Part shown: positions 1-47,043 of the stretch, piece by piece
Numbering within the stretch: position 1 is the stretch's first letter
How the letters are laid out: each line of letters begins with the position of its first letter
From: Bacillota bacterium
Lineage (GTDB): Bacteria; Bacillota; Clostridia; Christensenellales; CAG-138
DNA length: 47,043 nt
Assembly: GCA_016288175.1 (NCBI GenBank)
Contig: JAEEYN010000152.1
Coordinates: forward strand, 1-47,043
Reading direction: 5' to 3'
The notes under the pieces: generated by a model
The model's database searches: none
What the model was told of the DNA's origin: nothing
The model's input: the letters and a program-made list of their open reading frames with translations, nothing else
Position numbers and translations under genes: made by a program

Positions 1-119
1 ACGACAGCAATCTCAGGATCGCACCCAGCTTTCCTCCGCTTGACGAGCTTGAAAAGGCAATGCAGGTCCTCTGCGTATGCATCAAGCTGGCCGCCGCCGA
101 AAAGCTGCTTAGCAAATAA
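1..119 (+). CDS. 3' end of an upstream CDS (C-terminus ...[38 protein letters not shown]), possibly a PLP-dependent aminotransferase
   Basis: An open frame runs from the window edge to TAA at 117-119. The C-terminal RIAPSFP...EL motif resembles the ends of class-I-fold aminotransferases as I recall them. Only 38 residues are visible. Confidence 0.35.
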
Positions 120-151
120 AGAATCAAATTATTCATTCGGAGGAAAAAACA

Positions 152-1192: not shown

Positions 1193-1213
1193 ACCGAAAA
1201 GGAGAATACATAC

Positions 1214-2395
1214 ATGAAACAGGCTTACGAATTCTTCCGCAAGGAGCTCGACTCCATCCGCGAAGCGGGTACCTGGAGAGAAGAGCGCATCATTACCACC
1301 GAGCAGCGCGCAAGGATCGACACCACGAAGGCAAAGGGCGTTCTCAACATGTGCGCCAACAACTACCTCGGCCTTGCCAACAATCCCGAGATCATCGCCG
1401 CCGCAAAGGCCAGCTATGAGAAGTGGGGCTACGGCCTTTCCTCCGTCCGTTTCATCTGCGGCACTCAGCAGATTCATAAGGAGCTTGAAAGGAAGCTCGC
1501 CGATTTCCTCGAGATGGACGACTGTATCCTCTACACCTCCTGCTTCGACGCGAACGGCGGTCTTTTCGAGACCATCCTCGGCGCTGACGACGCGATCATC
1601 TCCGATGAGCTCAACCATGCTTCCATCATCGACGGCGTTCGCCTCTGCAAAGCCAAGAGGTTCCGCTATAAGAACAACAACATGGACGACCTCCGCGCAC
1701 AGCTCGAAGCCGCAAAGGATTGCCGCATCAAGCTGATCGCGACTGACGGCGTCTTCTCCATGGACGGTATCATCGCAAACCTTCCCGCCATCTGCGACCT
1801 CGCCGATGAATACGGCGCTCTCGTTATGGTCGACGACAGCCATGCCGTCGGTTTCATGGGCGAGCACGGCAAGGGCACTCATGAGGCATGCGGCGTGATG
1901 GGTCGTGTTGACATCATCACCGGTACCCTCGGCAAGGCAATGGGCGGTGCGTCCGGCGGCTACACCTGCGCACGCCAGGAGATCATCGACATGCTTCGCC
2001 AGAAGTCCCGTCCGTATCTCTTCTCCAACACCCTCGCTCCCGCAATCTGCGCTGCTTCCATCAAGGTCATCGACATGCTGAACGAATCCACCGCGCTTCG
2101 CGATAAGGTCCACGAGAACACCAAGTACTTCCGTGAGCAGCTCGGCAAGATCGGCTTCGACGTCATCGAGAGCACCCACCCGATCGTTCCCGTCATGCTG
2201 TATGACCCGAAGATCGCTCAGGAATTCGCACGCCGTATGCTCGATAAGGGCGTATACGTCGTCGGCTTCTGCTATCCCGTTGTTCCGAAGGGCAAGGACA
2301 GGATCCGCACCCAGGTTTCCGCAGGCCACACCAAGGAAGACCTCGACTTCGCAGTCAAGTGCTTCAAGGAAGTCAAGGAAGAAATGGGTATCTGA
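1214..2395 (+). CDS. kbl: 2-amino-3-ketobutyrate CoA ligase (glycine C-acetyltransferase)
   Basis: 393 aa alpha-oxoamine synthase-type sequence with the PLP-lysine context GTLGKAMGG. It starts 21 nt after tdh, with a GGAG RBS. Confidence 0.92.
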
Positions 2396-8783: not shown

Positions 8784-9953
8784 TTACAGAAGCGCATCCA
8801 CGGCCTTTTTAAGCCTGTCAAGCGCGGAAAGAAGCTGTTCTTTCGGCAGAGCGAGATTCCAGCGTTCAAAGCCGCCGCCGTTCTCGCCGAATACATAACC
8901 TTCGTCCAGAGCAAGGCCGTTCGCGAGCATATGCTTTTCGAGCGATTCGTTATCGAGACCCAAAGCGCGCATGTCGAGCCACGCAAGATAGGTCCCTTCC
9001 GCACGGATTGCCTTGATCATCGGAAGATTCTTTTCAACGAAGTCATACAGCGTTCTGAAGTTGCTGCCGACTGCCGCATTCAGCTCGTCTACCCATCCTG
9101 AACACTTCGTGTATGCCGCGATCGTTGCAGCGCGCGAGAAGTAGGGAACGAGGCCGCTTCCGAAACGTCCGTTGATCTCCTTCAGTTTCTTTGCGATATC
9201 ATCATTTTTGACGATAATGTTCGAACATCCGAGGCCGGCGAGATTGAAAGTTTTGCTGACTGCGGTGCAGGTGACGCAGTTTTCGGCCATTCCGGGGATC
9301 GACGCGAACACGGTGTGCTCCGCGCCATCAAGGAGCAGATCGTTATGGATCTCATCCGCGATCACAAGCACGTTGTTCTTTTTGCAGATCTCGCCGAGCT
9401 CCTTGAGCTCCTCCCGCGTCCAGACACGGCCGACGGGATTATGCGGACTGCAGAGCAGCATCAGTTTCACGTCATCTGGCTTTGTCTTTTCTTCGAGATC
9501 TTCAAAATCCATCTCGTAATGACCGTTATTGTTGATGAGACGGTTCTCGACGATGCGCCTTGAGTTGATGTTGATCGCGTGAGCAAACTGCATATAGACG
9601 GGCGGCTGAATGACCACGCCGTCGCCGGGCTGCGTATAGGCGGCCACAGCAAGGCTCAGAGCGGGCACAACGCCGGTGGTAGTGATCAGATTATAGTCGG
9701 AGCACTCCCAGTTGTGGCGCGTTCTCATCCATCCGAAAACGGCTTTTTTATAGGCTTCATCGGCATATGTATAGCCGAATATCCCGCGGTCGGCAGCTTC
9801 TTTGACGGCGGCTCTGATCTCCGGCGCGACGGCGAATTCCTGATCCGCGATCGTTAAGGGTACAAGACCCGAGCCCTTGACGGGCTCGGGTGCAAAATCG
9901 ATTTTGATCGAACCGGTTCCGGTCCGGTCTATTGGTGTTGTGAAATCGTACAT
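8784..9953 (-). CDS. PLP-dependent C-S lyase / aminotransferase, MalY/PatB family
   Basis: 389 aa. The N-terminus YDFTTPIDRTGTGSIK and the PLP-Lys context SKTFNLAGLG are typical of PatB/MalY cystathionine beta-lyase-like enzymes. Confidence 0.85.
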   Translation of the reverse strand: MYDFTTPIDRTGTGSIKIDFAPEPVKGSGLVPLTIADQEFAVAPEIRAAVKEAADRGIFGYTYADEAYKKAVFGWMRTRHNWECSDYNLITTTGVVPALSLAVAAYTQPGDGVVIQPPVYMQFAHAININSRRIVENRLINNNGHYEMDFEDLEEKTKPDDVKLMLLCSPHNPVGRVWTREELKELGEICKKNNVLVIADEIHNDLLLDGAEHTVFASIPGMAENCVTCTAVSKTFNLAGLGCSNIIVKNDDIAKKLKEINGRFGSGLVPYFSRAATIAAYTKCSGWVDELNAAVGSNFRTLYDFVEKNLPMIKAIRAEGTYLAWLDMRALGLDNESLEKHMLANGLALDEGYVFGENGGGFERWNLALPKEQLLSALDRLKKAVDALL

Positions 9954-9960
9954 GGCAGAA

Positions 9961-10533
9961 TCAGCTGAAGCTGTAGCCGCGATCGAAGGCTTTGAGGTTG
10001 ATCTCGAGGAACTTCGGCTTTACGCACTGCTCGATCGCCTTATGCCATTCATCTGCGGAAAAGGGGAGCTTCTTTGCTACAACGCCCATCAGAACGACGT
10101 TCGCTGCGCGATAGGTGCCGCACTCATGCGCGATCTCAACCGCATTGATCTCGATTGCTTTAGCAGCGGCTTCAACGCGCTCAAGGCAATCGGCGGGATA
10201 CTTCGTTGCGCCGGTGATAACGGGCATCGGAAGGATCTCCTGAGTGTTGATAACGATGGTTCCGTCCTTCTTGAGGTAGGGGAGTGCGCGGAGCGCTTCG
10301 AGGTTCTCGAACGCGAGAACGATGTCTGCCTGACCCTGCTCAACGATGGAGGAATAGAGGGGTTGATCGTTGCTGATGCGGACATAGGTAACGACGCTGC
10401 CGCCGCGCTGGCTCATACCGTGGACCTCGCTTACGCGGACATCATAACCGTTGTTCATTGCGAGCTGACCGAGGATCTTGCTTGCGAGCAGAGTGCCCTG
10501 GCCGCCGACGCCGACGATAACGATATTATACAT
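9961..10533 (-). CDS. iorB: Indolepyruvate:ferredoxin oxidoreductase, beta subunit
   Basis: 190 aa beginning IVIVGVGGQGTLLASKILG (2-oxoacid:Fd oxidoreductase gamma-type domain). It lies directly downstream of iorA, with an AAGGAGG RBS. Confidence 0.88.
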   Translation of the reverse strand: MYNIVIVGVGGQGTLLASKILGQLAMNNGYDVRVSEVHGMSQRGGSVVTYVRISNDQPLYSSIVEQGQADIVLAFENLEALRALPYLKKDGTIVINTQEILPMPVITGATKYPADCLERVEAAAKAIEINAVEIAHECGTYRAANVVLMGVVAKKLPFSADEWHKAIEQCVKPKFLEINLKAFDRGYSFS

Positions 10534-10547
10534 AACGAATTACCTCC

Positions 10548-12275
10548 TTAACCTTGGACATGGAGCGCACCGAAGTGGCAGAGCTGCTCGCAGAGGCCGC
10601 AGCCTACGCACTGGGTGGGATCGACGGCAACACCGGTTTCGGTCTTGCGGATCGCGGGGCAGCCGATCTTCATGCACATACCGCAGTTGCGGCACTTGGT
10701 CGTATCACAGACGAAGGGGATGCCGGGCTGCTTGACGATCAGAGCGCAGGGACGGCGGGAGATGATAACGGAGAGCTCCTCGCGTTCGGTCTCCTCGCGG
10801 ACGACTTTCTCGAGTTCCTTAAGATCGAAGGGATCGACAACGCGGACGTGCTTGATGCCCATCGCGTCGCAGAGCTTGAGGATATCGAGCGCAACGGTGG
10901 GATCGCCGTGGATATCTTTGCCATTGGCGGGGTTGTTCTGGTGGCCGGTCATACCGGTGATGGAGTTATCCGCAACGATAACGGTTCCGACGGAGCGGTT
11001 GTAAGCCATGTTCAGAAGGCCGGTGAGACCGCTGTGGCAGAAGGTGGAGTCGCCGAGAACGGCAACGGTCTTCTTCGCCTGCTCGTGGCCGCGTGCCTTT
11101 TCCATGCCGTGCGCCATGCCGATGGATGCGCCCATGCAGACGCAGGTATCAACACCGCTGAGCGGGGGCAGCGCGCCGAGGGTATAGCAGCCGATATCGG
11201 AGCAGACCGTCAGCTTCAGCTTGCCGAGAACGTGGTAGAGACCGCGGTGCGGGCAGCCGGGGCAGAGGACCGGAGGACGTGCGGGGATGCCTTCGGTGTT
11301 CATCGGGCCGGCTTCGGGTGCGCCTTCGAACTTCGTTGCAATCTTGCGCATGAACAGCTCGCCCTGAACGCCGGTAAGGTTCTTGCCGCTGCAGGGGATG
11401 CCCCAGGCCTTGATGGTGTCCTCATAGAAGGGCTCCATATCCTCGATAACATAGAGGGTCTCAACGCCCTTTGCGAACTCTTCAATGAGCTTGCGGGGCA
11501 TGGGGTAGGCGAGACCGAGCTTCAGAACGGATGCGTTCGGCATCGCTTCCTTGACGTAGTTGTACGCTGCGCCGGAGGTGATGACGCCGACCTTGCGGTC
11601 CGCCCACTCGACCTTGTTGATCGGGAGGGTATTGGCAGCTTCCGCGAGCTTCTTCTCGCGCTCTTCAACATAGAGATGGCGGCCGATCATGTTTGCGGGC
11701 ATCGAAACGTATTTCTTGATGTCGCGCTTGTATTCCTTCAGAGGACGCTCAACGCGGTCTTCAAGCTCAACAAGGGTCCTTGCATGAGCGATACGGGTGG
11801 TGACGCGAAGGATGACAGGGGTGTCGTACTCTTCGCTGATTTCGTATGCCATTTTCAGGAAGTCCTTGCATTCCTGGCTGCTTGAAGGATCGAGCACGGG
11901 AGCATGGGAGGCGCGGGCCAGCATTCGGGTATCCTGCTCGTTCTGGGAAGAATGCATGCCGGGATCATCTGCAACAACAACGACCATACCTGCGTTGACG
12001 CCGGTGTAGGTGGCGGTAAAGAAGGGGTCTGCCGCAACGTTCAGACCAACGTGCTTCATGCAGGCGAGGCTGCGTGCACCGCTTACGGCTGCGCCGAGAG
12101 CGACCTCAACGGCAACCTTCTCGTTGGGAGCCCATTCGGAATAGATTTCCGGATAGTTGGCTACATTCTCGTTGATTTCTGTGCTGGGGGTGCCGGGATA
12201 CGCACTCGAAACACGAACACCGGCTTCGTATGCGCCCCTTGCAATCGCTTCATTTCCGAGCAAAAGCTTTTTCAA
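10548..12275 (-). CDS. iorA: Indolepyruvate:ferredoxin oxidoreductase, alpha subunit
   Basis: 575 aa with a TPP-binding region and two C-terminal 4Fe-4S motifs (CRNCGMCMKIGCP, CVGCGLCEQLC). The start codon reads TTG (caa at 12273-12275) and is preceded by AAAGGAGGA. Confidence 0.9.
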   Translation of the reverse strand: MKKLLLGNEAIARGAYEAGVRVSSAYPGTPSTEINENVANYPEIYSEWAPNEKVAVEVALGAAVSGARSLACMKHVGLNVAADPFFTATYTGVNAGMVVVVADDPGMHSSQNEQDTRMLARASHAPVLDPSSSQECKDFLKMAYEISEEYDTPVILRVTTRIAHARTLVELEDRVERPLKEYKRDIKKYVSMPANMIGRHLYVEEREKKLAEAANTLPINKVEWADRKVGVITSGAAYNYVKEAMPNASVLKLGLAYPMPRKLIEEFAKGVETLYVIEDMEPFYEDTIKAWGIPCSGKNLTGVQGELFMRKIATKFEGAPEAGPMNTEGIPARPPVLCPGCPHRGLYHVLGKLKLTVCSDIGCYTLGALPPLSGVDTCVCMGASIGMAHGMEKARGHEQAKKTVAVLGDSTFCHSGLTGLLNMAYNRSVGTVIVADNSITGMTGHQNNPANGKDIHGDPTVALDILKLCDAMGIKHVRVVDPFDLKELEKVVREETEREELSVIISRRPCALIVKQPGIPFVCDTTKCRNCGMCMKIGCPAIRKTETGVAVDPTQCVGCGLCEQLCHFGALHVQG

Positions 12276-17442: not shown

Positions 17443-18201
17443 ATGGCTGACAACATTATGCATACATGGTATGATGCGGCGAAGAAGCGCGTTTCCGTCC
17501 GCAGTTACTCCGCACCGATCGACAGGGACATGTTCTATGTTCTGAAATCCGCGGCGATGAAGCTCTGCAATGATGAAGCCCGAATCGATCTTCGCGCAAA
17601 AAACGGAGTGCTCGGCAAGATCCCCGTGCTTTCCGCTGTAATCGGCGGAGTCGACGGCACCAACTGCTTTGCTGCCATCATCGTTAAGAAAGGCTGCGAA
17701 TACATGGGCGGGTACATCGGCGAAGCGTTCATCCTCGAATGCGTTTCCCGCGGACTTGCAACCTGCTGGCTCGGAGCCACCTATAAGAAAAAGGCTGTCA
17801 AAGAAATCGTCGAAATGCTCGATGATGAAAAGCTTATCGGCATTATCGCAATCGGCAAATGCGATCAGCTTCCCGAAAACGGTCCGAGAAAAAGCATTGA
17901 ACAGCTCACCGGCGTTACACCCGAAGATTTCCAGAAACTTCCGCAGTGGCAGCAGGAAGCCGCAAAAATGGCAAGGATCGCGCCCTCCGCGAGGAACTGT
18001 CAGCCCTGGGAGCTCGAGATCAAGCCCGGTTCGATCCGCCTTATCTGCAATTCCGATAACTTCGGCTACGGCGCGATCGACTGCGGTATCGCAATGCTGC
18101 ATATTGAGCTCGGAGCGGCAAAATGCGGTGTTTACGGCGATTGGCAGTTCCGGGAGATGGACAAGCTTTTCGTGCCGTTCGATATTCCCGAGAATACCTG
18201 A
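17443..18201 (+). CDS. Nitroreductase-superfamily protein (possibly the TM1586-like subgroup)
   Basis: 252 aa. Has RVSVRSY near the N-terminus and APSARNCQPW at about residue 185, both nitroreductase-type signatures. AAGGAGGA RBS. Confidence 0.6.
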   Translation: MADNIMHTWYDAAKKRVSVRSYSAPIDRDMFYVLKSAAMKLCNDEARIDLRAKNGVLGKIPVLSAVIGGVDGTNCFAAIIVKKGCEYMGGYIGEAFILECVSRGLATCWLGATYKKKAVKEIVEMLDDEKLIGIIAIGKCDQLPENGPRKSIEQLTGVTPEDFQKLPQWQQEAAKMARIAPSARNCQPWELEIKPGSIRLICNSDNFGYGAIDCGIAMLHIELGAAKCGVYGDWQFREMDKLFVPFDIPENT

Positions 18202-18230
18202 TCAGCCTTCAAACAATATAATATATAATA

Positions 18231-18746
18231 ATGAAGCATGTGATAATTTACACCGACGGCGCGTGCTCGGTAAATCCCGGTGTCGGCGGTTGGGGCGCGG
18301 TTCTGATCTACGGCAAACGCCGGCGCGAGCTTTCCGGTTCCGAGGCTCAGACCACGAACAACAGAATGGAACTGACTGCCGTGATCGAGGCCGTCAAAGC
18401 ACTGAATCAGCCGTGCGAGATCGATGTGTTTACGGACAGCAGCTATGTCTGCAATGCGTTCAAAAACGGCTGGATCTGGAACTGGCTCAGAAACGGCTGG
18501 AAGACCGCGAATAAACATCCGGTCGAAAATCAGGATCTTTGGCAGGAATTGCTTGCATGCTTAAAGATCCATAAAGTCAACTGGAATAAAGTCAAAGGTC
18601 ACGCGGACAACGAATACAATAATCGCTGCGATAAACTTGCGACGACCGCGGTTGCCGAGCTGAAAAAGAAAATCGAAACCGAAAAGCAGGAACGCGCAAA
18701 AGATTCAAAGAACAAAAGCGATGAATCCGGCGCTGAAACGGTTTGA
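18231..18746 (+). CDS. rnhA: Ribonuclease HI with a Lys/Glu-rich C-terminal tail
   Basis: 171 aa. Has IYTDGAC, TNNRMELTAV, TDSSYV and KVKGHADNEYNNRCDKLA, which give the DEDD catalytic pattern of RNase H1. Confidence 0.9.
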   Translation: MKHVIIYTDGACSVNPGVGGWGAVLIYGKRRRELSGSEAQTTNNRMELTAVIEAVKALNQPCEIDVFTDSSYVCNAFKNGWIWNWLRNGWKTANKHPVENQDLWQELLACLKIHKVNWNKVKGHADNEYNNRCDKLATTAVAELKKKIETEKQERAKDSKNKSDESGAETV

Positions 18747-18813
18747 GCCAAGGATGCCCAAACTAGGCCGAAAGCATCCGGACAAAAAAATATATTACTG
18801 TTATTCCGTATTC

Positions 18814-18847
18814 AACTATTCGCAAAACTTGTCTTTTGCGAATAGTT
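18814..18847. repeat. Perfect 14-bp inverted repeat with a 6-nt spacer (AACTATTCGCAAAA-cttgtc-TTTTGCGAATAGTT)
   Basis: Read directly from the sequence. It lies between rnhA and the Xer-type recombinase gene and overlaps that gene's predicted -35 and spacer. Confidence 0.9.
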
Positions 18848-18857
18848 ATGTTATAAT
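18829..18857 (+). promoter_or_regulatory. Sigma-A-type promoter for the tyrosine recombinase gene (TTGTCT-17 nt-TATAAT)
   Basis: -35 TTGTCT at 18829-18834, a 17-nt spacer, and -10 TATAAT at 18852-18857. It sits about 45 nt upstream of ATG 18904. Confidence 0.55.
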
Positions 18858-18903
18858 GAAAGAGGTGTCTCCCACCGCATTTCCGAACTCTTCCGGAGGT
18901 TTT

Positions 18904-20052
18904 ATGAGTGATGACTATACGGCCGAACGCTCGCGCATTTATACGCTTAAGCTGCGCGAAGTTCTCAGCGAGCTGCCATCCGTCTGCAGCGAATTCTTCA
19001 GAGGCATCGAAACGACCACTACGCCGCTGACACGTTACGGTTATGCGCTCGACCTTCGGCTTTTCATGCGATACTTGATCTGCACGGACCTTTGCAAAAA
19101 CGTTGAGTCGATCAAGGCGATCGATTATCGGATACTCGATTCCGTAACGCCCGATATTGTTGAAGGTTTTCTCGAATATATATCGCTTTATCCCGAAGAG
19201 AATTCCGATGCGGACAGTTCGGCCGATGTCAGCGCCGTTTTCGTTTCAAACGGCGAGCGCGGCAAAGCGAGAAAGCTCTCTTCCCTGCGTGCATTCTATA
19301 AGTATTTGTATAAAAAGGGACGCATCAACTCCAACGCTCCGTCGCTTGTCGACGCTCCGAAACTTCACGAGAAAAGCATAATCCGTCTTGAGCCGGATGA
19401 GATCGCAAAGCTGCTCGATCTTGTTGACAACGGCGAAGGGCTCACCGACGCCCAGAAGCGTTACCATAACCAAACAAAAATCCGCGACGCTGCGATCGTT
19501 ACGCTTTTCCTCGGCACCGGGATGCGTATCAGCGAGCTTGTCAGCATCAATACCGATGACATCGATTTCGAACAAAACGAAGTCCGGATCGTCCGCAAAG
19601 GCGGTAATCAGGATATCCTCGTTTTCGGCAGCGAAGTTCGCAGCGCGCTGATCGATTACAAGCTCCGCCGGGACGGAACGGAAACAGCGCCGGGTCACGA
19701 AAAAGCGTTCTTCCTTTCAATGCAAAGGAAGCGAATCACAGTGCGTGCCGTTGAACAGCTTGTTAAGAAGTATGCTCAGCTTGCGGCTCCTCTCAAAAAA
19801 ATCTCCCCGCATAAGCTTCGCAGCACATACGGTACTTCACTTTATCGTGAGACCGGCGATATTTATCTCGTTGCGGATGTGCTCGGCCATAAGGACGTCA
19901 ACACGACCAGAAAGCACTATGCCGCGCTTGCGCAGGAACGCCGCAGGACCGCTGCCGAGGTCATCAAGCTGCGTGAGGATCCCGCCGTTCCCGATCTTGA
20001 AGCAAAAACAGAAGCCGTTCCCGATCATGGAAACGGCTCCGATGAGAATTGA
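18904..20052 (+). CDS. Site-specific tyrosine recombinase, XerC/XerD-like
   Basis: The ORF track starts at 18721 and overlaps rnhA. GGAGG precedes ATG 18904 (MSDDYTAERS...). Catalytic set: GTGMRISE (Arg), HKLRSTYGT (His-x-x-Arg), LGHKDVNTTRKHY (His...Tyr). About 382 aa. Confidence 0.85.
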   Translation: MSDDYTAERSRIYTLKLREVLSELPSVCSEFFRGIETTTTPLTRYGYALDLRLFMRYLICTDLCKNVESIKAIDYRILDSVTPDIVEGFLEYISLYPEENSDADSSADVSAVFVSNGERGKARKLSSLRAFYKYLYKKGRINSNAPSLVDAPKLHEKSIIRLEPDEIAKLLDLVDNGEGLTDAQKRYHNQTKIRDAAIVTLFLGTGMRISELVSINTDDIDFEQNEVRIVRKGGNQDILVFGSEVRSALIDYKLRRDGTETAPGHEKAFFLSMQRKRITVRAVEQLVKKYAQLAAPLKKISPHKLRSTYGTSLYRETGDIYLVADVLGHKDVNTTRKHYAALAQERRRTAAEVIKLREDPAVPDLEAKTEAVPDHGNGSDEN

Positions 20053-20059
20053 TCTATTA

Positions 20060-20482
20060 TTACCTGTGCCGGCGTTTTCTTGAACCGTGCAGACCGATCT
20101 CCGGTTCGCTGACGTCCGGCGCTTCGTTTTTCTGCTCTTCTTCCTCGTATTTCCGAAGGATCTCATCCCATTTTGCGGCAAGCTCGGGGTCGACTTCAAG
20201 CGGCTCCGGGATCCTGAGGTCGATCGGTTCATCAAGAAATGCATTCAGCGCTTTTTCTTCATCCGTAAGCTCTTCATCATCAAAGAACTCTTCCTCGGAT
20301 CCGGGATCGGCTTTACCATAAATATCATCCGCGTTCAGAATAACGCTCTGGAATTCGTCGTCCTCGCCTTTTCGAAGACATTTGCCGCAGTTATCGCAGA
20401 TCTTGTTCGGATCGAGGTCGCAGCGCATGCATTCGCCGCAATCGTTACAGATCTTTCCGTCATAAAGAATACATTTTTTCAT
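20060..20482 (-). CDS. Hypothetical protein: N-terminal duplicated Cys4 module (8 Cys in 32 residues) plus a long acidic tail and a basic C-terminus
   Basis: 140 aa. Pattern C4-x7-C-x2-C-x2-C, then C21-x7-C-x2-C-x2-C (KICNDCGEC / KICDNCGKC), followed by a D/E-rich region ending in RKRRHR. GGAGAGG RBS. The start is 1 nt after the ynbB-like stop. Confidence 0.6.
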   Translation of the reverse strand: MKKCILYDGKICNDCGECMRCDLDPNKICDNCGKCLRKGEDDEFQSVILNADDIYGKADPGSEEEFFDDEELTDEEKALNAFLDEPIDLRIPEPLEVDPELAAKWDEILRKYEEEEQKNEAPDVSEPEIGLHGSRKRRHR

Positions 20483-28741: not shown

Positions 28742-28770
28742 ATTATACACGAAGACCGGGGCTGTTTCAA
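28742..28770 (-). promoter_or_regulatory. Near-consensus sigma-A promoter for miaB (TTGAAA-17 nt-TATAAT on the minus strand)
   Basis: Minus strand: -35 TTGAAA (28770-28765), a 17-nt spacer, and -10 TATAAT (28747-28742). It lies in the 66-nt gap between the recombinase-like stop and the miaB ATG. Confidence 0.65.
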
Positions 28771-28778
28771 CCGCGGCT

Positions 28779-30116
28779 TCAGTCAAAATCGAATCGGGCC
28801 GTTCCCAAACCGGGCAGTTTTATCTCCGCATTCGACCCTTCAACGGATACTTTGGAGACAATGCCGTTCAGGAGGAAACGCTGTTCGCGCCGCGAAAGCG
28901 ACCAAAGCTTCTTCAGCCGTTCAAAATAGGCTTCAACAGCGTTTTCGGCATTGTCCGTCAGCGCGAAAAGATGCTTCATGAACAAAAGATCGATCCTAGC
29001 AAGCATTATTTCCGCATTGATCCTGTCAAAAGCTTCAAGTTCCTTCCGCGTTTGCGGTCCCTTCAGCGTTGAATAGCGTTCTGCCTTTTTCTCGTTAAGC
29101 TCATCTATCAGTTCGGCGTCTTTTCCGGCTTTCGCTTTCGATTCCGCGCAGCGTCTTTTCGCAAACTCGATGCAGCGTTTCTTCATCGAATCAATATGCG
29201 GGCTCAGCTTGGAACAGATCGCCGTTGTTGCCTTTTCATCGAACGGAACCGCGGGGATAAAGTGCTGCCGGGGAGGCAAACAATAAACCTCTTCCCGTCC
29301 GTTTCCGCTCCTTAATCCCGGCCGCAGTGTACCTTTTTCGCTGCAGTTCAGTCTTTTAAAGAGGAATTCGTAGTTGTTGTTGTAATACCGAAGCTCGGAT
29401 TTGAGCTTCTCCCTTGCCGCGAAGCAGACCTGCGGGCTGACGATGACCGGATAACCGAGCTGTGTTTCATCAAGCCCCGCATAGCGATCGTTGAGAATGA
29501 TTTCCGGTACCCTGCTCCTTGCAATGCTGTTTTCCTGAGGAAAATCCTGCTCGATGTTCCTTGCGGTTTCCGAAGAAGTCAAGCCTTCGGCGCAGTAACG
29601 AAAAACCTTGCGAACGATCTCCGCTTTCGCTTCGTCGATCTTGATCGCATCTTCTTCGTATCTGTATCCGTAAACCGGTCTTCCCGCGGATTTCTTTGCG
29701 GTACATGCGATGTTGTTTCGGTCCGGTTCAACATCGTCTGTTCCGCAAAAGCGTTTCGCATTCGAGATCCAGCGCAACAACAAATCGGTTTCGGTCGGCA
29801 TTCTTTTCGGCAGGAACCTGTATCCGAGTTTTTCAAGGTAATAGATCAGGCCTTCGACATTATAGCTTTCGGCCGAAAGCCAATCGTAATCAGTAAGGAT
29901 AGTCGAGCGATAACCCGTGCTTTCGGCTAGATCGGCAAGTTTCAGCAAAGCATAAGGAGGTTTGTCCTGCCTGTCATACAGCACCGATGCAGCGGAAAGA
30001 TCAAGACGCGCGGCAAGTTCCCTCAGCGTTTTCTCACGGTTGTTTGCCTCGCTTTGCTCGCAGGCTGCGAAATAGATTATCGATTCTTTCGCATGGCCTT
30101 TTCCCGCTGCTTTCAT
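28779..30116 (-). CDS. Large-serine-recombinase-like protein with a degenerate catalytic domain
   Basis: The ORF track extends to 30320 and overlaps the upstream gene. GAGGAA precedes ATG 30116 (MKAAGKGH...), giving 445 aa. The Recombinase-domain signature is GRPVYGYRYEEDAIKIDEAKAEIVRKVFRYCAEGLTSSETARNIE. A coiled-coil region and the typical C-terminal beta-hairpin tail (IVSKVSVEGSNAEIKL) are present. The N-terminal resolvase-like segment reads IIYFAACEQSE where Y-x-R-x-S-T-x-x-Q is expected. Confidence 0.7.
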   Translation of the reverse strand: MKAAGKGHAKESIIYFAACEQSEANNREKTLRELAARLDLSAASVLYDRQDKPPYALLKLADLAESTGYRSTILTDYDWLSAESYNVEGLIYYLEKLGYRFLPKRMPTETDLLLRWISNAKRFCGTDDVEPDRNNIACTAKKSAGRPVYGYRYEEDAIKIDEAKAEIVRKVFRYCAEGLTSSETARNIEQDFPQENSIARSRVPEIILNDRYAGLDETQLGYPVIVSPQVCFAAREKLKSELRYYNNNYEFLFKRLNCSEKGTLRPGLRSGNGREEVYCLPPRQHFIPAVPFDEKATTAICSKLSPHIDSMKKRCIEFAKRRCAESKAKAGKDAELIDELNEKKAERYSTLKGPQTRKELEAFDRINAEIMLARIDLLFMKHLFALTDNAENAVEAYFERLKKLWSLSRREQRFLLNGIVSKVSVEGSNAEIKLPGLGTARFDFD

Positions 30117-30127
30117 AGTTTCGTTCC

Positions 30128-31435
30128 TCAATACAGTGCCGACCAGAGCTTTTCGGCTGATCTTTGTGCGCGGAGTTTGATATCGCTTCCCGAGATGCCT
30201 ATTAAATCTCCGTCCAGCATCAGCAGTTTGCCGTCTGTCATAACCGTTCTGCACTTTCTTCCGCTGCAGTTTAAAACAACATGCTGTTCGGCATTGTATG
30301 CGTTCATCGGCGTATAGCAATCATAATCTATGACGATTATATCGGCTTTTGCACCGGGTCTGATAACGCCGACCGTTTCACCGAAAAGCTTCGAAGCTGT
30401 TTCCGCGTTTGCTTCAAAAAGCATCCGTTCCGCGATCTTCGGTGAATACATGCCTGCTTCACTGCGGCCGAACTCTCCGGAAGCCGCTCTTGCTGATTCG
30501 AGCATATCAAATCGGGATGCGCCTGCGCTCAGTCCCGGAACATACCGGCAGTCCGCACTCAGGCGCGCTTTGCCACACTCTTCAGCGAATAAAGGTACGA
30601 CTCTTGTGCCGGTCTTTGCCAATGCTTCAAACTCGCCATTATCGAAACGGCTTGCCGCCGCGATCGTATTCTCTCCGGCGATTCCGGAATCGATCATCCG
30701 CTCCGCAGGAGTTTTTCGATATTTCCTTAAGGAATTGCCGATATTGAATTCGGAGTTCTCCAAAAGCACATGGAAACCCGTTTTGTCTTCCCAAAACTCG
30801 CGGTAGCTTGAAAGGTTATCTCCGTTCGTGCCGTCCGCAATCCTTAAGCCGAATGCAGGATGCATCCTCGAATCGCGAACGGCAGCGCAGTAGTTATAAA
30901 AGTTCAGATTTTCCTCGACTGCCGCCTGTTGGAGCCTCCACGGCTCGTTTTCATCAACTTCGCAGCATACTGAGGCGCGAATGCCGATCTCCCTGAATGC
31001 CGACGCTATAGTCTGAAGGCTCCCGCTTGTGCAGGACGGAGAAGAATGATACTCAAAAACAGAGGTGATCCCGTTTCTGATGCTTTCGACCGCAGCAGCA
31101 GCCGCGGCATTACGCAGATATTCAAGATTCAAGCCGGCTTTCAGCTTCTTTTGCCTGTCTGCCGCAGCATAACCCGAGCGTAAACCGGCGCTCTGCGCGC
31201 CGCCGGCAAGCCCGATTGAGTAGATGTCTGTGCAGCGTGAATGAAGGTTGATCAAACCCGGCATGATGAGCCCACCGCGTGCGTCGATCGTCTCCGCCTT
31301 CGGGTAATCTGCGAACAGCTGCTTTTCATCACCGACGGCAATGATGCAGTCGTTCGAAACCGCAACAGCACCGCGGTCAAGATACGGTATCTGTTGATCA
31401 TGAGTTATTATCCTGCCGTTTTTGAAAAGGAACAT
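30128..31435 (-). CDS. SsnA-like amidohydrolase-fold protein lacking the canonical metal ligands
   Basis: 435 aa. It is collinear with my recalled SsnA/chlorohydrolase layout (MPGLIN.H..., GITSVFEYHSSPSCTSGSLQTIASAF, GAKADIIVIDY). However, HxH reads LHSRC, the H-x-H..E strand reads FHVLLEN, the next His position reads AAAS, and the Asp strand (LGTDG) reads LSAGA. Confidence 0.7.
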   Translation of the reverse strand: MFLFKNGRIITHDQQIPYLDRGAVAVSNDCIIAVGDEKQLFADYPKAETIDARGGLIMPGLINLHSRCTDIYSIGLAGGAQSAGLRSGYAAADRQKKLKAGLNLEYLRNAAAAAAVESIRNGITSVFEYHSSPSCTSGSLQTIASAFREIGIRASVCCEVDENEPWRLQQAAVEENLNFYNYCAAVRDSRMHPAFGLRIADGTNGDNLSSYREFWEDKTGFHVLLENSEFNIGNSLRKYRKTPAERMIDSGIAGENTIAAASRFDNGEFEALAKTGTRVVPLFAEECGKARLSADCRYVPGLSAGASRFDMLESARAASGEFGRSEAGMYSPKIAERMLFEANAETASKLFGETVGVIRPGAKADIIVIDYDCYTPMNAYNAEQHVVLNCSGRKCRTVMTDGKLLMLDGDLIGISGSDIKLRAQRSAEKLWSALY

Positions 31436-31438
31436 ATC

Positions 31439-32338
31439 TCAGGTCATGAATTTCGGTTGGCTGTTCAGATACGTATCGCGAAAATGCTGGACCATTGTCG
31501 CAATAAACTCCGAGTTTGTCGGCTTGCCTTTCGAAGCGTCGACCGTATTCCCGAACAGATAATACTGCATATACGGACTGCTTCTTTCCCATGCGCTCTC
31601 GATCGAATAGCGCACTGCCTTTTCGACAGCGGCAGGAGAGGTTTTGGTGAGCTCGGCCGTGTACCTGTAGAGGGTATTGAGCCTGTTGTCCATTCCGAGC
31701 ACCTGCATATAGATGATGAGCTGCAGATAGCCCGTCCCCTTCTGCTTCGGGTCGAGACCGATAGGTTCGAGCAGTGTTTCGGTAATACCTTTGAGAAGGC
31801 GTTTATCCAGTTTGCCCTCGTTGAAGAAAAGGACGTCGCTGATGTAGCTTCTCATGTTCGAAAGCACTTCCTGCTCTTTTCTCGCAAGGAATTCGGAATA
31901 TGCATCGAACACCCGTTTCGCGCTTTCCTCAACGCTTTGCGAATACTCTATCATTCCGTCGATGCCGCAGCTTTCGCAGATGCCGGCGAGCGAAGCCGTT
32001 GATTTTTCGCAGCAGATAAAATAACGGATATCCATGCAGAACCTGCTCAGGCGCAGTTTCGAGATCAGCGTTATCGGATCGACATCCGGAAGCGTCTGAC
32101 TGATGATCACTGCATCCGGGATCCTCAAAACAAGATGAGGCCAGATCTCCGCACCGAGACGAACCGGCTCGTCGGTATCGAAATACCGGCCGAGCGCCGC
32201 ATTCAGGCAGCGGGCAAATTCTCTCTCCGTTTCGCCGCACGATGACTGCGGGTCCGACTCATGGCCGTCCTCACAGATTATCAGCACATACGGTTTTAGG
32301 CCGAAGTTATGTCCGTTCTTCGCTGCGGTCTTGCTCAT
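31439..32338 (-). CDS. Spo0A-like transcription factor: Spo0A C-terminal DNA-binding domain fused to a degenerate (pseudo-)receiver domain
   Basis: 299 aa. The C-terminal half matches Spo0A_C hallmarks (KGTGYLQ..., SPAAVEKAVRYSIESAW, KGKPTNSEFIATM). The N-terminal half has receiver-like topology, but the phospho-acceptor context reads PDAVIISQTLPDVD (Ser where Asp is expected), and the conserved Thr and Lys positions are also not recognisable. GGGAGG RBS, 21 nt after the htrA stop. Confidence 0.75.
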   Translation of the reverse strand: MSKTAAKNGHNFGLKPYVLIICEDGHESDPQSSCGETEREFARCLNAALGRYFDTDEPVRLGAEIWPHLVLRIPDAVIISQTLPDVDPITLISKLRLSRFCMDIRYFICCEKSTASLAGICESCGIDGMIEYSQSVEESAKRVFDAYSEFLARKEQEVLSNMRSYISDVLFFNEGKLDKRLLKGITETLLEPIGLDPKQKGTGYLQLIIYMQVLGMDNRLNTLYRYTAELTKTSPAAVEKAVRYSIESAWERSSPYMQYYLFGNTVDASKGKPTNSEFIATMVQHFRDTYLNSQPKFMT

Positions 32339-32359
32339 GCGGACCTCCCTAAAGCTAAC

Positions 32360-43449: not shown

Positions 43450-44046
43450 TTATTCGGCGGCTATTGTTTGCAGTTTTTCAATAAGATCGTTAAGTTCCCG
43501 CTTCGAAAGAGATGTTAAAAGTTTGAATGCCTTTTCAGGTGCTGCAGATTCTCTTTGCTGTTTGAAATTCTCATAAGGGTCTTTTACACAGCAGCCTTCC
43601 TTTTTCAGATTGCCTACAATGTTTCTGACGTACTCCTTTCGTTTTTGAACAGTAGATCTGAATTTGTTTTGGTAGCGAAGCATCAATTTCAGATCCCCTC
43701 CGCCGAGTCTCAACGCGCAGCCGCGTACAGACTCGCCTTTTGAAGTCCCGATAAGCATCTCGCGCATCAGGTTTTCAAGCTGCTCCTTTGTAAAATGCGA
43801 AGCTTTGTCCGCCGGGCGAAGAAGGAGATCCGGATTCGATTTTGCAAGCTGGTAATAGTGGTTACGCACACTGTTCGGCTTGCGTCCCGTCATTTTCGCG
43901 GTTTCGTTGAACGCGGAGTTCAGAGGACGGCGGTTTTCGCGCGCGGTCCGTGCGCTTTCAAGCAGCAGTTCTTCTTCGGCTGCGGACCATCCGCTTGCAT
44001 GCAGCCTTTCAAACAGCGGCAAATTTTCGATACATTTATACATCAT
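43450..44046 (-). CDS. RsfA-family (Myb/SANT-like) sporulation transcription regulator
   Basis: 198 aa. GWSAAEEELLLESARTARENRRPLNSAFNETAKMTGRKPNSVRNHYYQ resembles the RsfA Myb-like repeat (W-x2-E-D-x-L-L...F...R-x-N). A forespore-type promoter lies upstream. Confidence 0.65.
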   Translation of the reverse strand: MMYKCIENLPLFERLHASGWSAAEEELLLESARTARENRRPLNSAFNETAKMTGRKPNSVRNHYYQLAKSNPDLLLRPADKASHFTKEQLENLMREMLIGTSKGESVRGCALRLGGGDLKLMLRYQNKFRSTVQKRKEYVRNIVGNLKKEGCCVKDPYENFKQQRESAAPEKAFKLLTSLSKRELNDLIEKLQTIAAE

Positions 44047-44157: not shown

Positions 44158-44631
44158 TTATTTGATTATAAGGTAAACAAGACCGACGATCACGGACGAT
44201 ATTATCCCATAGACGAGCACTGGGCCCGCAAACGAGAATAGCTGCGCGCCGACGCCGAGCACAAGGCCTTCACGCTTATGCTCCATTGCCGGAGAAACGA
44301 TTGAATTCGAAAACCCAGTGATAGGAACCACCGAACCTGCGCCGGCAAAAGTCCCGATGCGGTCATAAACGCCGATGCCTGTCAGAAGTGCGCCGATAAA
44401 GATCAGCACAATTGAAACAAAAGCGCCTCTCTCCTTTTCGCCGAATCCGAAAGCGATACTGCCGATATCGCCTATCAGCTGTCCGATGCAGCAGATGGCG
44501 CCTCCGACGGCAAAAGCCAAGATGCATTGCCGAAGCACCTTGCTTTTCGGAGCTTTTTTATTGACAAGCGCTCTGTACCGAGCGTGTTCAAATCGCTCTT
44601 CCGGCGTCAGTTTTCGATTCGTTTTATCCAT
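44158..44631 (-). CDS. spoVAC: Stage V sporulation protein AC
   Basis: 157 aa. It closely follows the SpoVAC pattern (FAVGGAICCIGQ, LTGIGVYDRIGTFAGAGSVVPITGFSNS, EGLVLGVGAQLF). GGAG RBS. Confidence 0.9.
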   Translation of the reverse strand: MDKTNRKLTPEERFEHARYRALVNKKAPKSKVLRQCILAFAVGGAICCIGQLIGDIGSIAFGFGEKERGAFVSIVLIFIGALLTGIGVYDRIGTFAGAGSVVPITGFSNSIVSPAMEHKREGLVLGVGAQLFSFAGPVLVYGIISSVIVGLVYLIIK

Positions 44632-44657
44632 TCTCTGCTCCGATCCCGCCCGATGCT

Positions 44658-44792
44658 TCAGCCTGCCATGACCAGTTTCGCGCCGTCGAAAGTCAGCTCG
44701 GCGCGCTGTTCTCCGGCGTTGATTGCGATCGCCGCAATGACTGCGATCAATAAAGCAATTCCCGCAAACAGCAATTTATGAAACTTCTTCAT
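44658..44792 (-). CDS. Candidate small membrane protein (44 aa), below the ORF-track cutoff
   Basis: My own translation of the minus strand gives MKKFHKLLFAGIALLIAVIAAIAINAGEQRAELTFDGAKLVMAG*. It has a basic N-terminus plus one hydrophobic helix. AAAGGA lies about 11 nt upstream. It fills most of the 214-nt gap between the sigF-like gene and spoVAC. Confidence 0.4.
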   Translation of the reverse strand: MKKFHKLLFAGIALLIAVIAAIAINAGEQRAELTFDGAKLVMAG

Positions 44793-44845
44793 TATCTTTC
44801 ACGTCCTTTCGGCTTTTGCTTTTATCTTGCGCAGCAGGAAGCTTT

Positions 44846-45394
44846 TTATTCGATTTGATCGTTTTGGCAAAACTTGTTTTTGAGCTTCTTCAAAGCGTTT
44901 TTTTCTGTTTTCGATACCGTCGGCTGCGAGACCCATAGCACAGCCGCCGTCTTTTTCTGCGTCAGTCCTCGAAAATACCGAAGGCAGATCACGGCTTTCT
45001 CGGTTTCCGAAAGTGTCTCCAGTCCCTCGCGCAGCTGCAGATTACGCAGAACTTTGGCTTCGTCATCATCAGCATCAACCGGAATGCAGATTTCGGTTCT
45101 TTCTTCAAGGCTGTCGACGGTCATCCGGCAGCTGAAGGCTGAGTTTTTTCGAAGCGCAGAGCGGATCTCGCCCTCGATATAGATGAACGCGAACGATGCA
45201 AACGGGACGTTCCTTTCCGCATCGTACTTCAGCCAGGCTTTCCAAAGCCCGAGCGAACCGTATTGAAACAGCTCGTCCTGCGGCATGCCCCGCCCGGCGA
45301 ACCTTTGCGCAACATATCTCACGAACGGCAGGAAGCTTTCCGCCGACAAAGGCCCGGCAGCGGCAGCGCTGCTGTTTTCGTTTTTTCCCTTCAC
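44846..45394 (-). CDS. sigF: Sigma-70-family sporulation sigma factor in the sigF position, unusually short (no recognisable region 3)
   Basis: 182 aa. Region 2 (DELFQYGSLGLWKAWLKYDAERNVPFASFAFIYIEGEIRSALR) and region 4 (LSETEKAVICLRYFRGLTQKKTAAVLWVSQPTVSKTEKNALKKLK) are clear. Only about 44 residues link them. GTG start with a GTGA overlap on the spoIIAB stop. Confidence 0.7.
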   Translation of the reverse strand: MKGKNENSSAAAAGPLSAESFLPFVRYVAQRFAGRGMPQDELFQYGSLGLWKAWLKYDAERNVPFASFAFIYIEGEIRSALRKNSAFSCRMTVDSLEERTEICIPVDADDDEAKVLRNLQLREGLETLSETEKAVICLRYFRGLTQKKTAAVLWVSQPTVSKTEKNALKKLKNKFCQNDQIE

Positions 45395-45819
45395 GCGTCC
45401 GCGCTCGATATCCGCTTTATCAGCCGAACGACCGTTCCCTCGGCGGGTTTCGAAAAGACCTCGACTTTATCCATGAACGCTTTCATCACGGCAAACCCCA
45501 TGCCGGACCTTTCCCCCTCCGGTCCTGTAGTGAAATACGGCTGCATCGCCTGTTCGATATCCTTGATCCCCCTTCCCCGGTCCTTGATCTCAACTGTCAG
45601 CAGATCCCCGCAGATACACATTTCGAGGGTTATGACGCCGTCGCCCATAGCGTAACCGTGTATGATAGAATTTGTGACTGCTTCGCTCACGGCTGTTCGG
45701 ACGTCCGCGAGTTCCTCCAGTGTCGGGTCAAGCGGCGCAATGAACGCCGAAACGGCGCTTCTTGCGAATGATTCGTTGACCGGTTTGCTCTGCATTTCGA
45801 TTTTGATGCGATTATTCAT
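45391..45819 (-). CDS. spoIIAB: Anti-sigma-F factor / serine kinase SpoIIAB
   Basis: 142 aa. Has the GHKL kinase motifs EAVTNSIIHG, DRGRGI and GMGFAVM. It abuts the spoIIAA stop. Confidence 0.93.
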   Translation of the reverse strand: MNNRIKIEMQSKPVNESFARSAVSAFIAPLDPTLEELADVRTAVSEAVTNSIIHGYAMGDGVITLEMCICGDLLTVEIKDRGRGIKDIEQAMQPYFTTGPEGERSGMGFAVMKAFMDKVEVFSKPAEGTVVRLIKRISSADA

Positions 45820-46134
45820 TCAGCTCACCTTATTTGTCAGTTTATAGATCCCTGCGATGCGGAGTATCTTCACGATGCTCTCGTTTGGATTGGCGATCCC
45901 TATAGTGCCGCCCCTTGCCGCCATCAGTTTATAACGTCCGAGTATAACGCCTATGCCGGAGCTGTCCATGAAGGTCACTTTGGAAAGATCGAATATGAGT
46001 TTCCGTACGCTCCTGTTCCTTCCGACCAGGCAGTCTATGCATTCGCGGATCGGTCCGGCGCTGTTTTGGTCGATCTCATCCTTCAGGAAGACCGTCAGTT
46101 CGGCGTCCGATATCCTGTAATTGAGCTTTATCAA
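45820..46134 (-). CDS. spoIIAA: Anti-anti-sigma-F factor SpoIIAA (STAS domain)
   Basis: The ORF track extends to 46320, but AAAGGAGA precedes a TTG at 46134, giving (M)IKLNYRISDAELTV... at 104 aa, the usual SpoIIAA size. The phosphorylatable-Ser motif FMDSSGIG is present. Confidence 0.85.
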   Translation of the reverse strand: MIKLNYRISDAELTVFLKDEIDQNSAGPIRECIDCLVGRNRSVRKLIFDLSKVTFMDSSGIGVILGRYKLMAARGGTIGIANPNESIVKILRIAGIYKLTNKVS

Positions 46135-46319
46135 TCGGGTTTCTCCTTTGCGCGTTAGTTCCGCAATTGAATACTCCTTCTTTGATGCTGTCTCCTGCAA
46201 AAGAAAACGGCGAATAAGAAAATGTTTTGTCTTATTGCAAAACAGGACAAAATAAGTTAAAATATTCTTTAGTAACAGCTGCGGCGCTTTGCCGCTCACG
46301 CAGGAAGGAGGAAACGGCA

Positions 46320-47043
46320 ATGGAGCGAAATGATTTCGTTTTCAACGGAGTCAACGGCTCGTGCAGCGTGCTGGTCGCAGGCCGTTTCTCCGAACTCGCG
46401 CCTTTTGTCCGCGAAGCGATCCGCGGCCGCAAAGCGCTTATACTGACGGATGAAACGGTTTCGGGCATCATTCTCGGCTCCGTCACCGAAGCCGTCAGCG
46501 ATCCCTCGGCAGAGCTTTTCTCCTTCGTTATCCGTTCCGGTGAAAAAAGCAAAAGCTTTGAAGATCTCGGCTCGATCCTGACCTGCATGGTCGAACGCTC
46601 ATTCGGCCGCGGAGACGTGATCATCAACCTCGGCGGAGGAATGGTCGGCGATATCGGCGGTCTTGCCGCTTCCGTCTATATGCGTGGGATCGATTACATC
46701 AATATTCCGACAACTCTGCTCAGCATGGTCGACAGTTCCATCGGAGGAAAAACGGGAATCGATTTCGCCGGGATCAAAAACGTTATCGGCACCTTCCGCC
46801 ATCCGAAACTCGTTGCGGACGCAACGGAGTTCCTTTCCTCGCTTTCCGAGCGCGATATCCGCTCCGGTTTCGGCGAGATAGTAAAATACCGTCTTCTAAC
46901 AGGCATGGATATCCCCGAAGGATTCGAATCAGGCAGCGCGGAAAAGCTTATCGCGAACTGTGCCGCCGCAAAATGGTCCTTCGTTATTGGCGACGAATTC
47001 GACAACGGCAAGCGCAAATTTCTGAATCTCGGCCACACCTTCG
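46320..47043 (+). CDS. aroB: 3-dehydroquinate synthase, 5' part (runs off the window)
   Basis: Not in the ORF track because it has no stop. My own translation gives MERNDFVFNG...INLGGGMVGDIGGLAASVYMRGIDYINIPTTLLSMVDSSIGGKTGIDF...FLNLGHTF, which is the AroB NAD/Zn-site pattern. GGAAGGAGG RBS. Confidence 0.88.
   Translation, partial: MERNDFVFNGVNGSCSVLVAGRFSELAPFVREAIRGRKALILTDETVSGIILGSVTEAVSDPSAELFSFVIRSGEKSKSFEDLGSILTCMVERSFGRGDVIINLGGGMVGDIGGLAASVYMRGIDYINIPTTLLSMVDSSIGGKTGIDFAGIKNVIGTFRHPKLVADATEFLSSLSERDIRSGFGEIVKYRLLTGMDIPEGFESGSAEKLIANCAAAKWSFVIGDEFDNGKRKFLNLGHTF

Follow-up and report, generated by a model that had tools for sequence, protein, structure and literature searches.

A conserved gene trio in Clostridia encoding a Spo0A-type pseudo-receiver regulator and non-catalytic homologues of an amidohydrolase and a large serine recombinase

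Introduction

Why would three adjacent genes be kept intact and together when each of their products has lost the residues on which the chemistry of its family depends? The question is raised by a contig of 47,043 nt from a Bacillota bacterium of the CAG-138 lineage of the Christensenellales (JAEEYN010000152.1, assembly GCA_016288175.1), the whole of which was analysed and is referred to here as the window. Downstream of htrA it carries three genes, A, B and C, whose products resemble the sporulation regulator Spo0A, the amidohydrolase SsnA and the large serine recombinases, respectively (Table 1). A preliminary description of the window had proposed that all three are full-length homologues that are retained for non-catalytic functions. 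The issue is of some general interest, since Spo0A is regarded as the switch common to all endospore formers, driven by phosphorylation, and its gene is widely used as a sporulation marker. We find that all three products keep the fold of the parent family, have lost its catalytic or phospho-acceptor residues and have remained under selection. As a tentative explanation we propose that A is a Spo0A-type regulator which works independently of phosphorylation and together with partner proteins that are non-catalytic, so that the system would act by binding and not by chemistry.

Gene A: a Spo0A-type regulator with a pseudo-receiver

Profile searches and per-residue alignments confirmed that the three proteins are full-length homologues without the hallmark residues of their families, with the nuance that A keeps the acidic pair Glu23-Asp24 and B the first His of its metal site. 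In the Pfam search, residues 188-285 of A matched Spo0A_C (PF08769) at 76.4 bits (cut-off 25, E 2e-21), and this C-terminal domain is 37% identical to the Spo0A structure 1fc3, with a Foldseek template modelling (TM) score of 0.81. Response_reg (PF00072) gave no Pfam match in A. In the AlphaFold2 (AF2) model, built from 19 relatives (predicted local distance difference test score, pLDDT, 78), residues 17-167 form a (beta-alpha)5 CheY-like fold, which Foldseek superposes at a TM score of about 0.8 on many receiver domains, those of Spo0A and Spo0F among them. The layout is therefore that of Spo0A (1fc3, 1lq1, 5wq0), with a CheY-fold N-terminal domain followed by the Spo0A_C helix-turn-helix, but A differs from Spo0A in its invariant Ser at the phospho-site, in its altered recognition helix and in being flanked by htrA and the gene of a dead amidohydrolase.

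When A was aligned with bona fide Spo0A proteins, the phospho-Asp was replaced by Ser80, the conserved Thr/Ser by Cys and the conserved Lys by Tyr, and an insertion was found after strand beta1. Ser80 is invariant in all 19 family members and is also present in the A proteins of two further trio loci (L094 and L099; loci and proteins are cited by our L and P numbers). The recognition helix reads AVEKAxRY as against RVERAIRH in Spo0A. It is conserved within the A family, where Lys240 and Tyr244 are invariant at the positions of the Spo0A Arg and His/Asn, and the motif GKPTNxEF together with E247, A249 and W250 is invariant and held in common with Spo0A. A falls below the Spo0A equivalog model TIGR02875 (64.6 bits against a cut-off of 200, with residues 74-287 aligned), and a profile of the A family separates its members (250-438 bits) from canonical Spo0A (up to 125 bits). 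One member of the A cluster is labelled "stage 0 sporulation protein A" in the automatic JGI annotation, which means that Spo0A marker calls can hide a regulator unable to work in the textbook way.

Two sequences suggest how the site may have been lost. In P0140 the Asp is still present and a receiver domain can be detected; otherwise the protein carries the signature of the A family (RY in the recognition helix, conserved Lys lost). The A-family protein of Christensenellaceae bacterium Phil7 (L013, positions 9851-10789) has Glu in the phospho-site column, a residue that is classically regarded as phosphomimetic at this position. Together they hint at a stepwise loss of the phospho-site in a lineage descended from Spo0A.

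Phosphorylation-independent response regulators and pseudo-receivers are familiar from ChxR, HP1043, FrzS and the plant PRRs, and A likewise keeps the receiver fold without a working phospho-acceptor and with its output domain intact. To our knowledge, no atypical response regulator has been known in the Spo0A family, nor do we know of one that combines a conserved Ser at the site with a dead enzyme encoded directly downstream.

Gene B: an amidohydrolase homologue without a metal site

B is collinear with the SsnA and TRZ/ATZ (cytosine-deaminase-type) amidohydrolases over the whole SsnA model, its residues 1-434 aligning to positions 1-442 of the 444-position NF005540 (251 bits against a cut-off of 444). 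The second SsnA model, TIGR03314, was likewise matched below its cut-off (229.9 against 455.5 bits), and the Pfam matches were Amidohydro_1, in two stretches (40.3 bits, cut-off 25), and Amidohydro_3 (39.1 bits, cut-off 29.7). Unlike these enzymes, B has lost all metal and catalytic residues except the first His of the HxH motif. HxH has become H-S-R, the strand-5 His Leu, the Glu of HxxE Asn, the strand-6 His Ala and the strand-8 Asp Gly. Seven SsnA-type comparison proteins retain HxH, HxxE, the strand-6 His and the strand-8 Asp, and B is 33-36% identical to SsnA-type proteins with the full ligand set. Its neighbourhood also differs from that of SsnA in being neither a selenium nor a purine-catabolism one.

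The loss is shared and graded. The catalytic Glu and the strand-6 His are missing in 8/8 of the B-type proteins that adjoin A or C; the B protein of L098 retains HxH, the strand-5 His and the Asp, while that of L099 retains none of the ligands. Among the loci obtained, the dead B type was seen only beside A and/or C. An active SsnA-like protein (P0011) and an A-like one (P0135), for both of which a 10,194-nt contig is listed, were considered as possible neighbours; they are not, as the 230 nt that follow A in L003 are non-coding.

Survival of the amidohydrolase barrel after its metal ligands has precedents. PyrC' is an inactive dihydroorotase that serves as a structural subunit of Pseudomonas aspartate transcarbamoylase, and the CRMP/DRP proteins are likewise non-catalytic amidohydrolase homologues. 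They offer an analogy for a scaffolding or regulatory role, although B belongs to another subfamily than PyrC', has another partner and has no link to pyrimidine synthesis.

Gene C: a dead relative of the large serine recombinases

C has the domain order of large serine recombinases such as the A118/LI integrase (4kis), Bxb1, TP901-1 and SpoIVCA: a resolvase-like N-terminal domain, a recombinase domain, a beta-hairpin domain at the position of the zinc ribbon and a long coiled coil. It differs from them in having no conserved nucleophile, catalytic arginines, zinc cysteines, attachment sites or surrounding mobile element. No Pfam match to Resolvase (PF00239) or to a zinc ribbon was found in C, and the match to Recombinase (PF07508) is marginal (22.6 bits, cut-off 21.1); within the family PF07508 matches 12/19 members, with a best E of 4e-9. 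The preliminary description had held that two members of the trio keep DNA-binding domains. This stands for A, in which Spo0A_C is intact, and for C, in which the DNA-binding module is intact as well.

The fold of C is clear from its AF2 model (pLDDT 86.4, predicted TM score 0.83). The top Foldseek matches were 4kis (probability 1.0), 6dnw (both the A118/LI integrase C-terminal domain on DNA) and Bxb1 9iu9, and the N-terminal domain matched the serine recombinase catalytic domains 3lhk, 3ilx, 3lhf and 3bvp. A profile of the C family found the A118 integrase C-terminal domain (E 1e-10), the catalytic domain of ISC1926 TnpA (E 7e-6) and the phage integrase family phrog_95 (E 1.4e-9). In the alignment of these profiles, AliYFvcss of the C family stands opposite AVIYARVSS of ISC1926 TnpA; C of the window has Ala, Ala and Cys at the Arg, Val and Ser positions, with Cys19 in the place of the nucleophile. 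Family members have C, S, A, L, E, Q, N or K in this column, and the equivalents of Arg8, Arg68 and Arg71 are absent throughout. The zinc-binding Cys4 site is also absent; beta-hairpins are predicted at residues 256-288 instead, and the number of cysteines in this region is 2 in the window protein, 1 in P0002 and 0 in P0243. C retains GRxPFGY and RYxG, motifs of the recombinase domain, as well as a coiled coil about 100 residues long.

A search without a word index returned about 20 full-length relatives of C at 19-33% identity, and the family is small and separate (about 20 clusters at 50% identity). A metagenome scan with a three-sequence alignment of C gave no match. The most distant relative (P0260, 19% identity) lies at positions 8001-9359 of L097 between a DUF885 gene and a PHO4 phosphate-transporter gene, with no A, B or mobile-element gene near it.

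Conservation of the trio and selection on it

The neighbourhood control covered 99 loci, which were searched with profiles of the A, B and C families. A, B and C recur in the same order, strand and slot in L001, L093, L094 and L099, the last found by a metagenome scan with the N-terminal part of A, and B-C-miaB is present on the short contig of L095; L096 is a near-identical strain of the window. Five or six diverged lineages have all three genes together, in a shared slot of MutS2, 2-thiouracil desulfurase, an OmpR-type regulator, (a kinase), HtrA, A, B, C, MiaB and MutS. Compared with the window, the proteins are as little as 37-39% (A), 31-36% (B) and 25-26% (C) identical, with MiaB still at 80% and HtrA at 59-60%. 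The block is an old and vertically inherited one of a clade of uncultured gut and rumen Clostridia.

Between the window and L001 the synonymous sites are saturated, the proportion of differing synonymous sites (pS) being 0.64-0.75 overall and 0.68-0.75 for A, B and C. At non-synonymous sites the corresponding proportion (pN) amounts to 0.185 in A, 0.252 in B and 0.306 in C, as against 0.05-0.11 for the neighbouring genes. Since pN lies far below the saturated pS, A, B and C are under purifying selection, and they evolve 2-4 times faster than their neighbours. The open reading frames (ORFs) are intact in all lineages, at 284-299 aa for A, 432-440 aa for B and 434-468 aa for C. The earlier view that the trio is retained and not decaying is thus upheld both by its presence in other lineages and by its non-neutral evolution. 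Plain pseudogenisation, in which the genes would be decaying relics still open by chance, could draw on the faster evolution of the trio and on a within-species excess of replacements in B (see below), but it is barely credible given frames kept at the same length in five or six lineages despite saturated synonymous sites, pN far below pS, confident AF2 models and conserved ribosome-binding sites.

A proposed regulator acting by binding, and its alternatives

In the model that we tentatively favour, A would be the effector. Its Spo0A-type helix-turn-helix is intact and is predicted to bind DNA. Since the recognition helix is systematically altered, the target is probably other than the classical 0A box, and since Ser stands in the place of the phospho-Asp, A would not be switchable by a kinase or phosphorelay through an aspartate. 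Its receiver-like domain may be set by protein contact instead. The likeliest partner for this contact would be B, as the dead B type occurs only beside A and/or C and the start of B appears coupled to the stop of A. C may serve as a site-specific DNA-binding or DNA-bridging accessory that is unable to cut, since the DNA-binding domain of the recombinases has been kept, a cysteine-less beta-hairpin domain stands in place of the zinc ribbon, and the long coiled coil, through which any bridging might take place, has been kept too. The setting would most likely be the control of a sporulation-derived developmental programme, because spoIIAB, a sigF-like gene and spoVAC lie in the same window. Enzyme homologues are known in comparable roles: KipI and KipA regulate the sporulation phosphorelay, and gp47 is an enzyme-fold directionality partner of the Bxb1 integrase. 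In a bolder version, which we consider unlikely, A would be the only Spo0A of the clade, and a reduced, unusual form of sporulation, with a short sigma-F-like factor and a lone spoVAC, would be triggered by a protein switch of two domesticated dead enzymes, in which B sets the Ser80 pseudo-receiver and C anchors or bridges the DNA at specific sites, in place of aspartyl phosphorylation. If A were indeed the only copy, the clade would be a natural experiment in the rewiring of the Spo0A switch.

Several observations weigh against this model. A stands without B and C in L003, L008, L010, L012 and L013, which hold more distant members of its family, and the C of L097 has neither A nor B beside it. 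Synteny extends equally to the flanking housekeeping genes and is therefore by itself a weak sign of shared function in this clade. At its old active-site positions B has different residues in different lineages, with no new constellation fixed, and this free variation argues against a conserved ligand pocket there. The suggestion in the preliminary description that the amidohydrolase shell acts as a small-molecule receptor is accordingly weakened, and its ligand-sensing DNA-binding complex is conjectural. Contact between A, B and C is itself a proposal drawn from sequence and gene order. Apart from the miaB promoter, the short intergenic regions (upstream of A and between C and miaB) showed no conserved operator-like motif. 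Furthermore, the Spo0A gene content of the organism is seen through one 47-kb contig, and a canonical Spo0A encoded elsewhere would bear on the role of A. Finally, B differs between the window and L096 (1475-2782) by 10 non-synonymous and 4 synonymous substitutions, and B may be under locally relaxed or diversifying selection within the species; these are small numbers, as the whole comparison holds few substitutions. The corresponding counts are 1 and 11 for mutS and 4 and 20 for mutL.

The first two of these points lend themselves to a different explanation, namely that A, B and C are three independent non-catalytic proteins in a conserved run of housekeeping genes, each with a function of its own and with no complex or joint pathway. 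A was met alone in at least five other contexts, htrA, miaB and mutS are functionally unrelated and yet equally syntenic over the same loci, and the unequal rates of A, B and C (pN 0.19, 0.25 and 0.31) would also fit independent functions. What makes this explanation somewhat unlikely in our view is the persistence of the pairs. Adjacency survives a change of the surrounding genes, as shown by the A-B pair in an unrelated neighbourhood (L005-L007) and by the B-C pair ahead of a penicillin-binding-protein gene (L098). The genes are also packed very closely, with 3 and 11 nt between them in the window and 1 and 13 nt in L001, and with B and C overlapping by 4 nt in L098; the dead B type was never met without A or C. 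A scan of 185,579 species genomes with the A-family alignment speaks in the same direction. Among the matches listed, 79 of 80 loci were canonical spo0A, which shares the GKPTNSEF motif, and none of these 79 has a B-like or C-like ORF within 10 kb; none was found near the A-family gene of L013 either.

Another possibility concerns the origin of the trio and fits either functional explanation. The block may be an anciently domesticated integrated element, in which C would be a former integrase and B its former partner, fixed beside a Spo0A-type regulator. The descent of C from large serine recombinases is clear, B adjoins C wherever C has a recorded neighbour except in L097, and recombination directionality factors can have an enzyme fold, as in the case of Bxb1 gp47. 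The marks of mobility are missing, however. The GC content of the trio (0.50-0.52) equals that of the flanks, no att-like direct or inverted repeats flank it, the entire window has no tRNA gene, and no phage or conjugative-element genes lie in or beside the trio, whose neighbours are housekeeping genes. C had no tblastn match in 50,697 phage records, and A belongs to a chromosomal family descended from Spo0A. The slot is filled even where C is only 25% identical, so that any such event would predate the clade. Since the slot is occupied in deeply diverged relatives, and the flat GC content and the lack of flanking repeats and of a tRNA gene agree, the trio is not a recent insert. The preliminary description had called it a discrete insert-like unit, which the old synteny with htrA on one side and miaB and mutS on the other contradicts; its alternative of a domesticated mobile-element remnant is improbable and would hold only for a very old event.

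It is also conceivable that at least one of the proteins has remained active as an enzyme with non-canonical residues: C with Cys19 as the nucleophile, B with a rebuilt metal site, or A with Ser80 phosphorylated by a Ser/Thr kinase. Ser80, invariant in the 19 family members and present in L094 and L099, is more conserved than a placeholder needs to be, the Cys at the nucleophile position of C is Ser in several relatives, and B of L098 keeps HxH, the strand-5 His and the Asp. We regard residual catalysis as very improbable all the same, since other members of the C family have A, L, E, Q, N or K in the nucleophile column and none has the catalytic arginines, the ligand positions of B vary from each lineage to the next, the catalytic Glu being absent in 8/8, and the conserved neighbourhood has no Ser/Thr kinase or phosphatase gene.

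Neither a Spo0A pseudo-receiver nor a family of dead serine integrases nor the A-B-C trio was found described in the literature searched, and none of A, B and C matched the PADLOC anti-phage defence models at E up to 0.01, in line with the earlier remark that no system of such composition had been described. Atypical response regulators and dead amidohydrolases are of known kinds; what appears to be new, as far as our searches show, is a chromosomal family made up of dead large serine integrases, and likewise a pseudo-receiver within the Spo0A family that has an invariant Ser. The trio is a clean bacterial case of three pseudoenzymes long kept together, which makes the role of dead enzymes in bacteria testable. 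Dead integrases with DNA-binding domains and a coiled coil may, in addition, supply programmable DNA-binding modules that do not cut.

Organisation of the locus

The coordinates given in the preliminary description for the three co-directional genes proved exact, with gaps of 21 nt between htrA and A, 3 nt between A and B and 11 nt between B and C (Table 1). Since B has no strong ribosome-binding site of its own at the 3-nt junction, it is likely that B is translationally coupled to A; in more distant loci the A-B spacing is 13-32 nt. The C frame is open upstream as far as a TTG at 30320. The ATG is backed as the start of C by the GAGGAA ribosome-binding site and by the N-termini of the orthologues.

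Table 1. Positions of the trio, its signals and the sporulation-related genes in the window
Feature	Position	Strand	Size or detail	Remarks
Gene A	31439-32338	minus	299 aa	Spo0A-type transcription factor with pseudo-receiver
Gene B	30128-31435	minus	435 aa	SsnA-type amidohydrolase homologue without metal site
Gene C	28779-30116	minus	445 aa from ATG	dead relative of large serine recombinases
htrA stop codon	32360-32362	minus		sequence reading
Strong ribosome-binding site of A, AGGGAGG	32344-32350	minus	5 nt ahead of A ATG, within htrA-A gap	sequence reading
A-B junction	31436-31438	minus	A stop, 3 nt, B ATG	without strong ribosome-binding site for B
Ribosome-binding site of C, GAGGAA	30124-30129	minus	overlaps B stop codon	sequence reading
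miaB promoter, TTGAAA-17-TATAAT	28742-28770	minus	11/12 consensus matches	marks downstream end of trio
spoIIAA-like STAS protein	45820-46320 (ORF)	minus		real start probably near 46135
spoIIAB	45391-45819	minus		187.7 bits, cut-off 135
SigF/G-like sigma factor	44846-45394	minus	at most 182 aa, frame closed upstream	97.9 bits, cut-off 321
spoVAC	44158-44631	minus		183.5 bits, cut-off 164

The trio belongs to a co-directional run of response regulator, histidine kinase, htrA, A, B, C, miaB, mutS and mutL genes. No terminator-like site was seen between htrA and miaB on the minus (coding) strand, and A, B and C are probably co-transcribed. As had been described, the trio ends at a near-consensus promoter of miaB. 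This promoter is kept in five orthologous loci, where the motif TTG...TTCGTGTATAAT is invariant: in the window, L001, L093, L094 and L095 it reads TTG(A/C)(A/G)A, followed by a spacer of 17-18 nt and the invariant TTCGTGTATAAT, an extended -10 element. The intergenic sequence around it is otherwise unalignable between the five lineages. The 0A box TGTCGAA is not enriched in the window, where it was observed 10 times against 9.4 expected.

Sporulation genes and other features of the window

A sporulation cluster lies about 12 kb from the trio, at positions 44158-46320 of the minus strand. This means, as far as can be read from the sequence, that the lineage has at least remnants of an endospore programme, and the nature of its Spo0A-type protein is for that reason biologically relevant. 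Of the 231 positions of the SigF model, the sigma factor of the cluster matches only 11-76 and 163-230; it has regions 2 and 4 but lacks region 3. This short SigF-like factor is another reduced regulator in the same genome. spoVAD and spoVAE do not follow spoVAC. The next gene there is a 198-aa ORF (43450-44046, minus strand) with only a sub-threshold Myb-like match.

The other genes of the window are of the housekeeping kind and include those for LigA, PcrA, UvrAB, MutSL and MiaAB. A tyrosine integrase gene (18721-20052, plus strand; Phage_integrase 2e-32) lies between uvrA and the mutL-miaA block and is preceded by a 281-aa ORF without a family match (region 17669-20052). An ORF of at least 776 aa (2-2329, minus strand) that runs off the contig end had no Pfam or NCBIfam match. 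A 140-aa ORF (20060-20482, minus strand), downstream of miaA and a methionine-gamma-lyase-like gene, likewise has no family match, and a gene is called at the same position in L096 (12428-12782).

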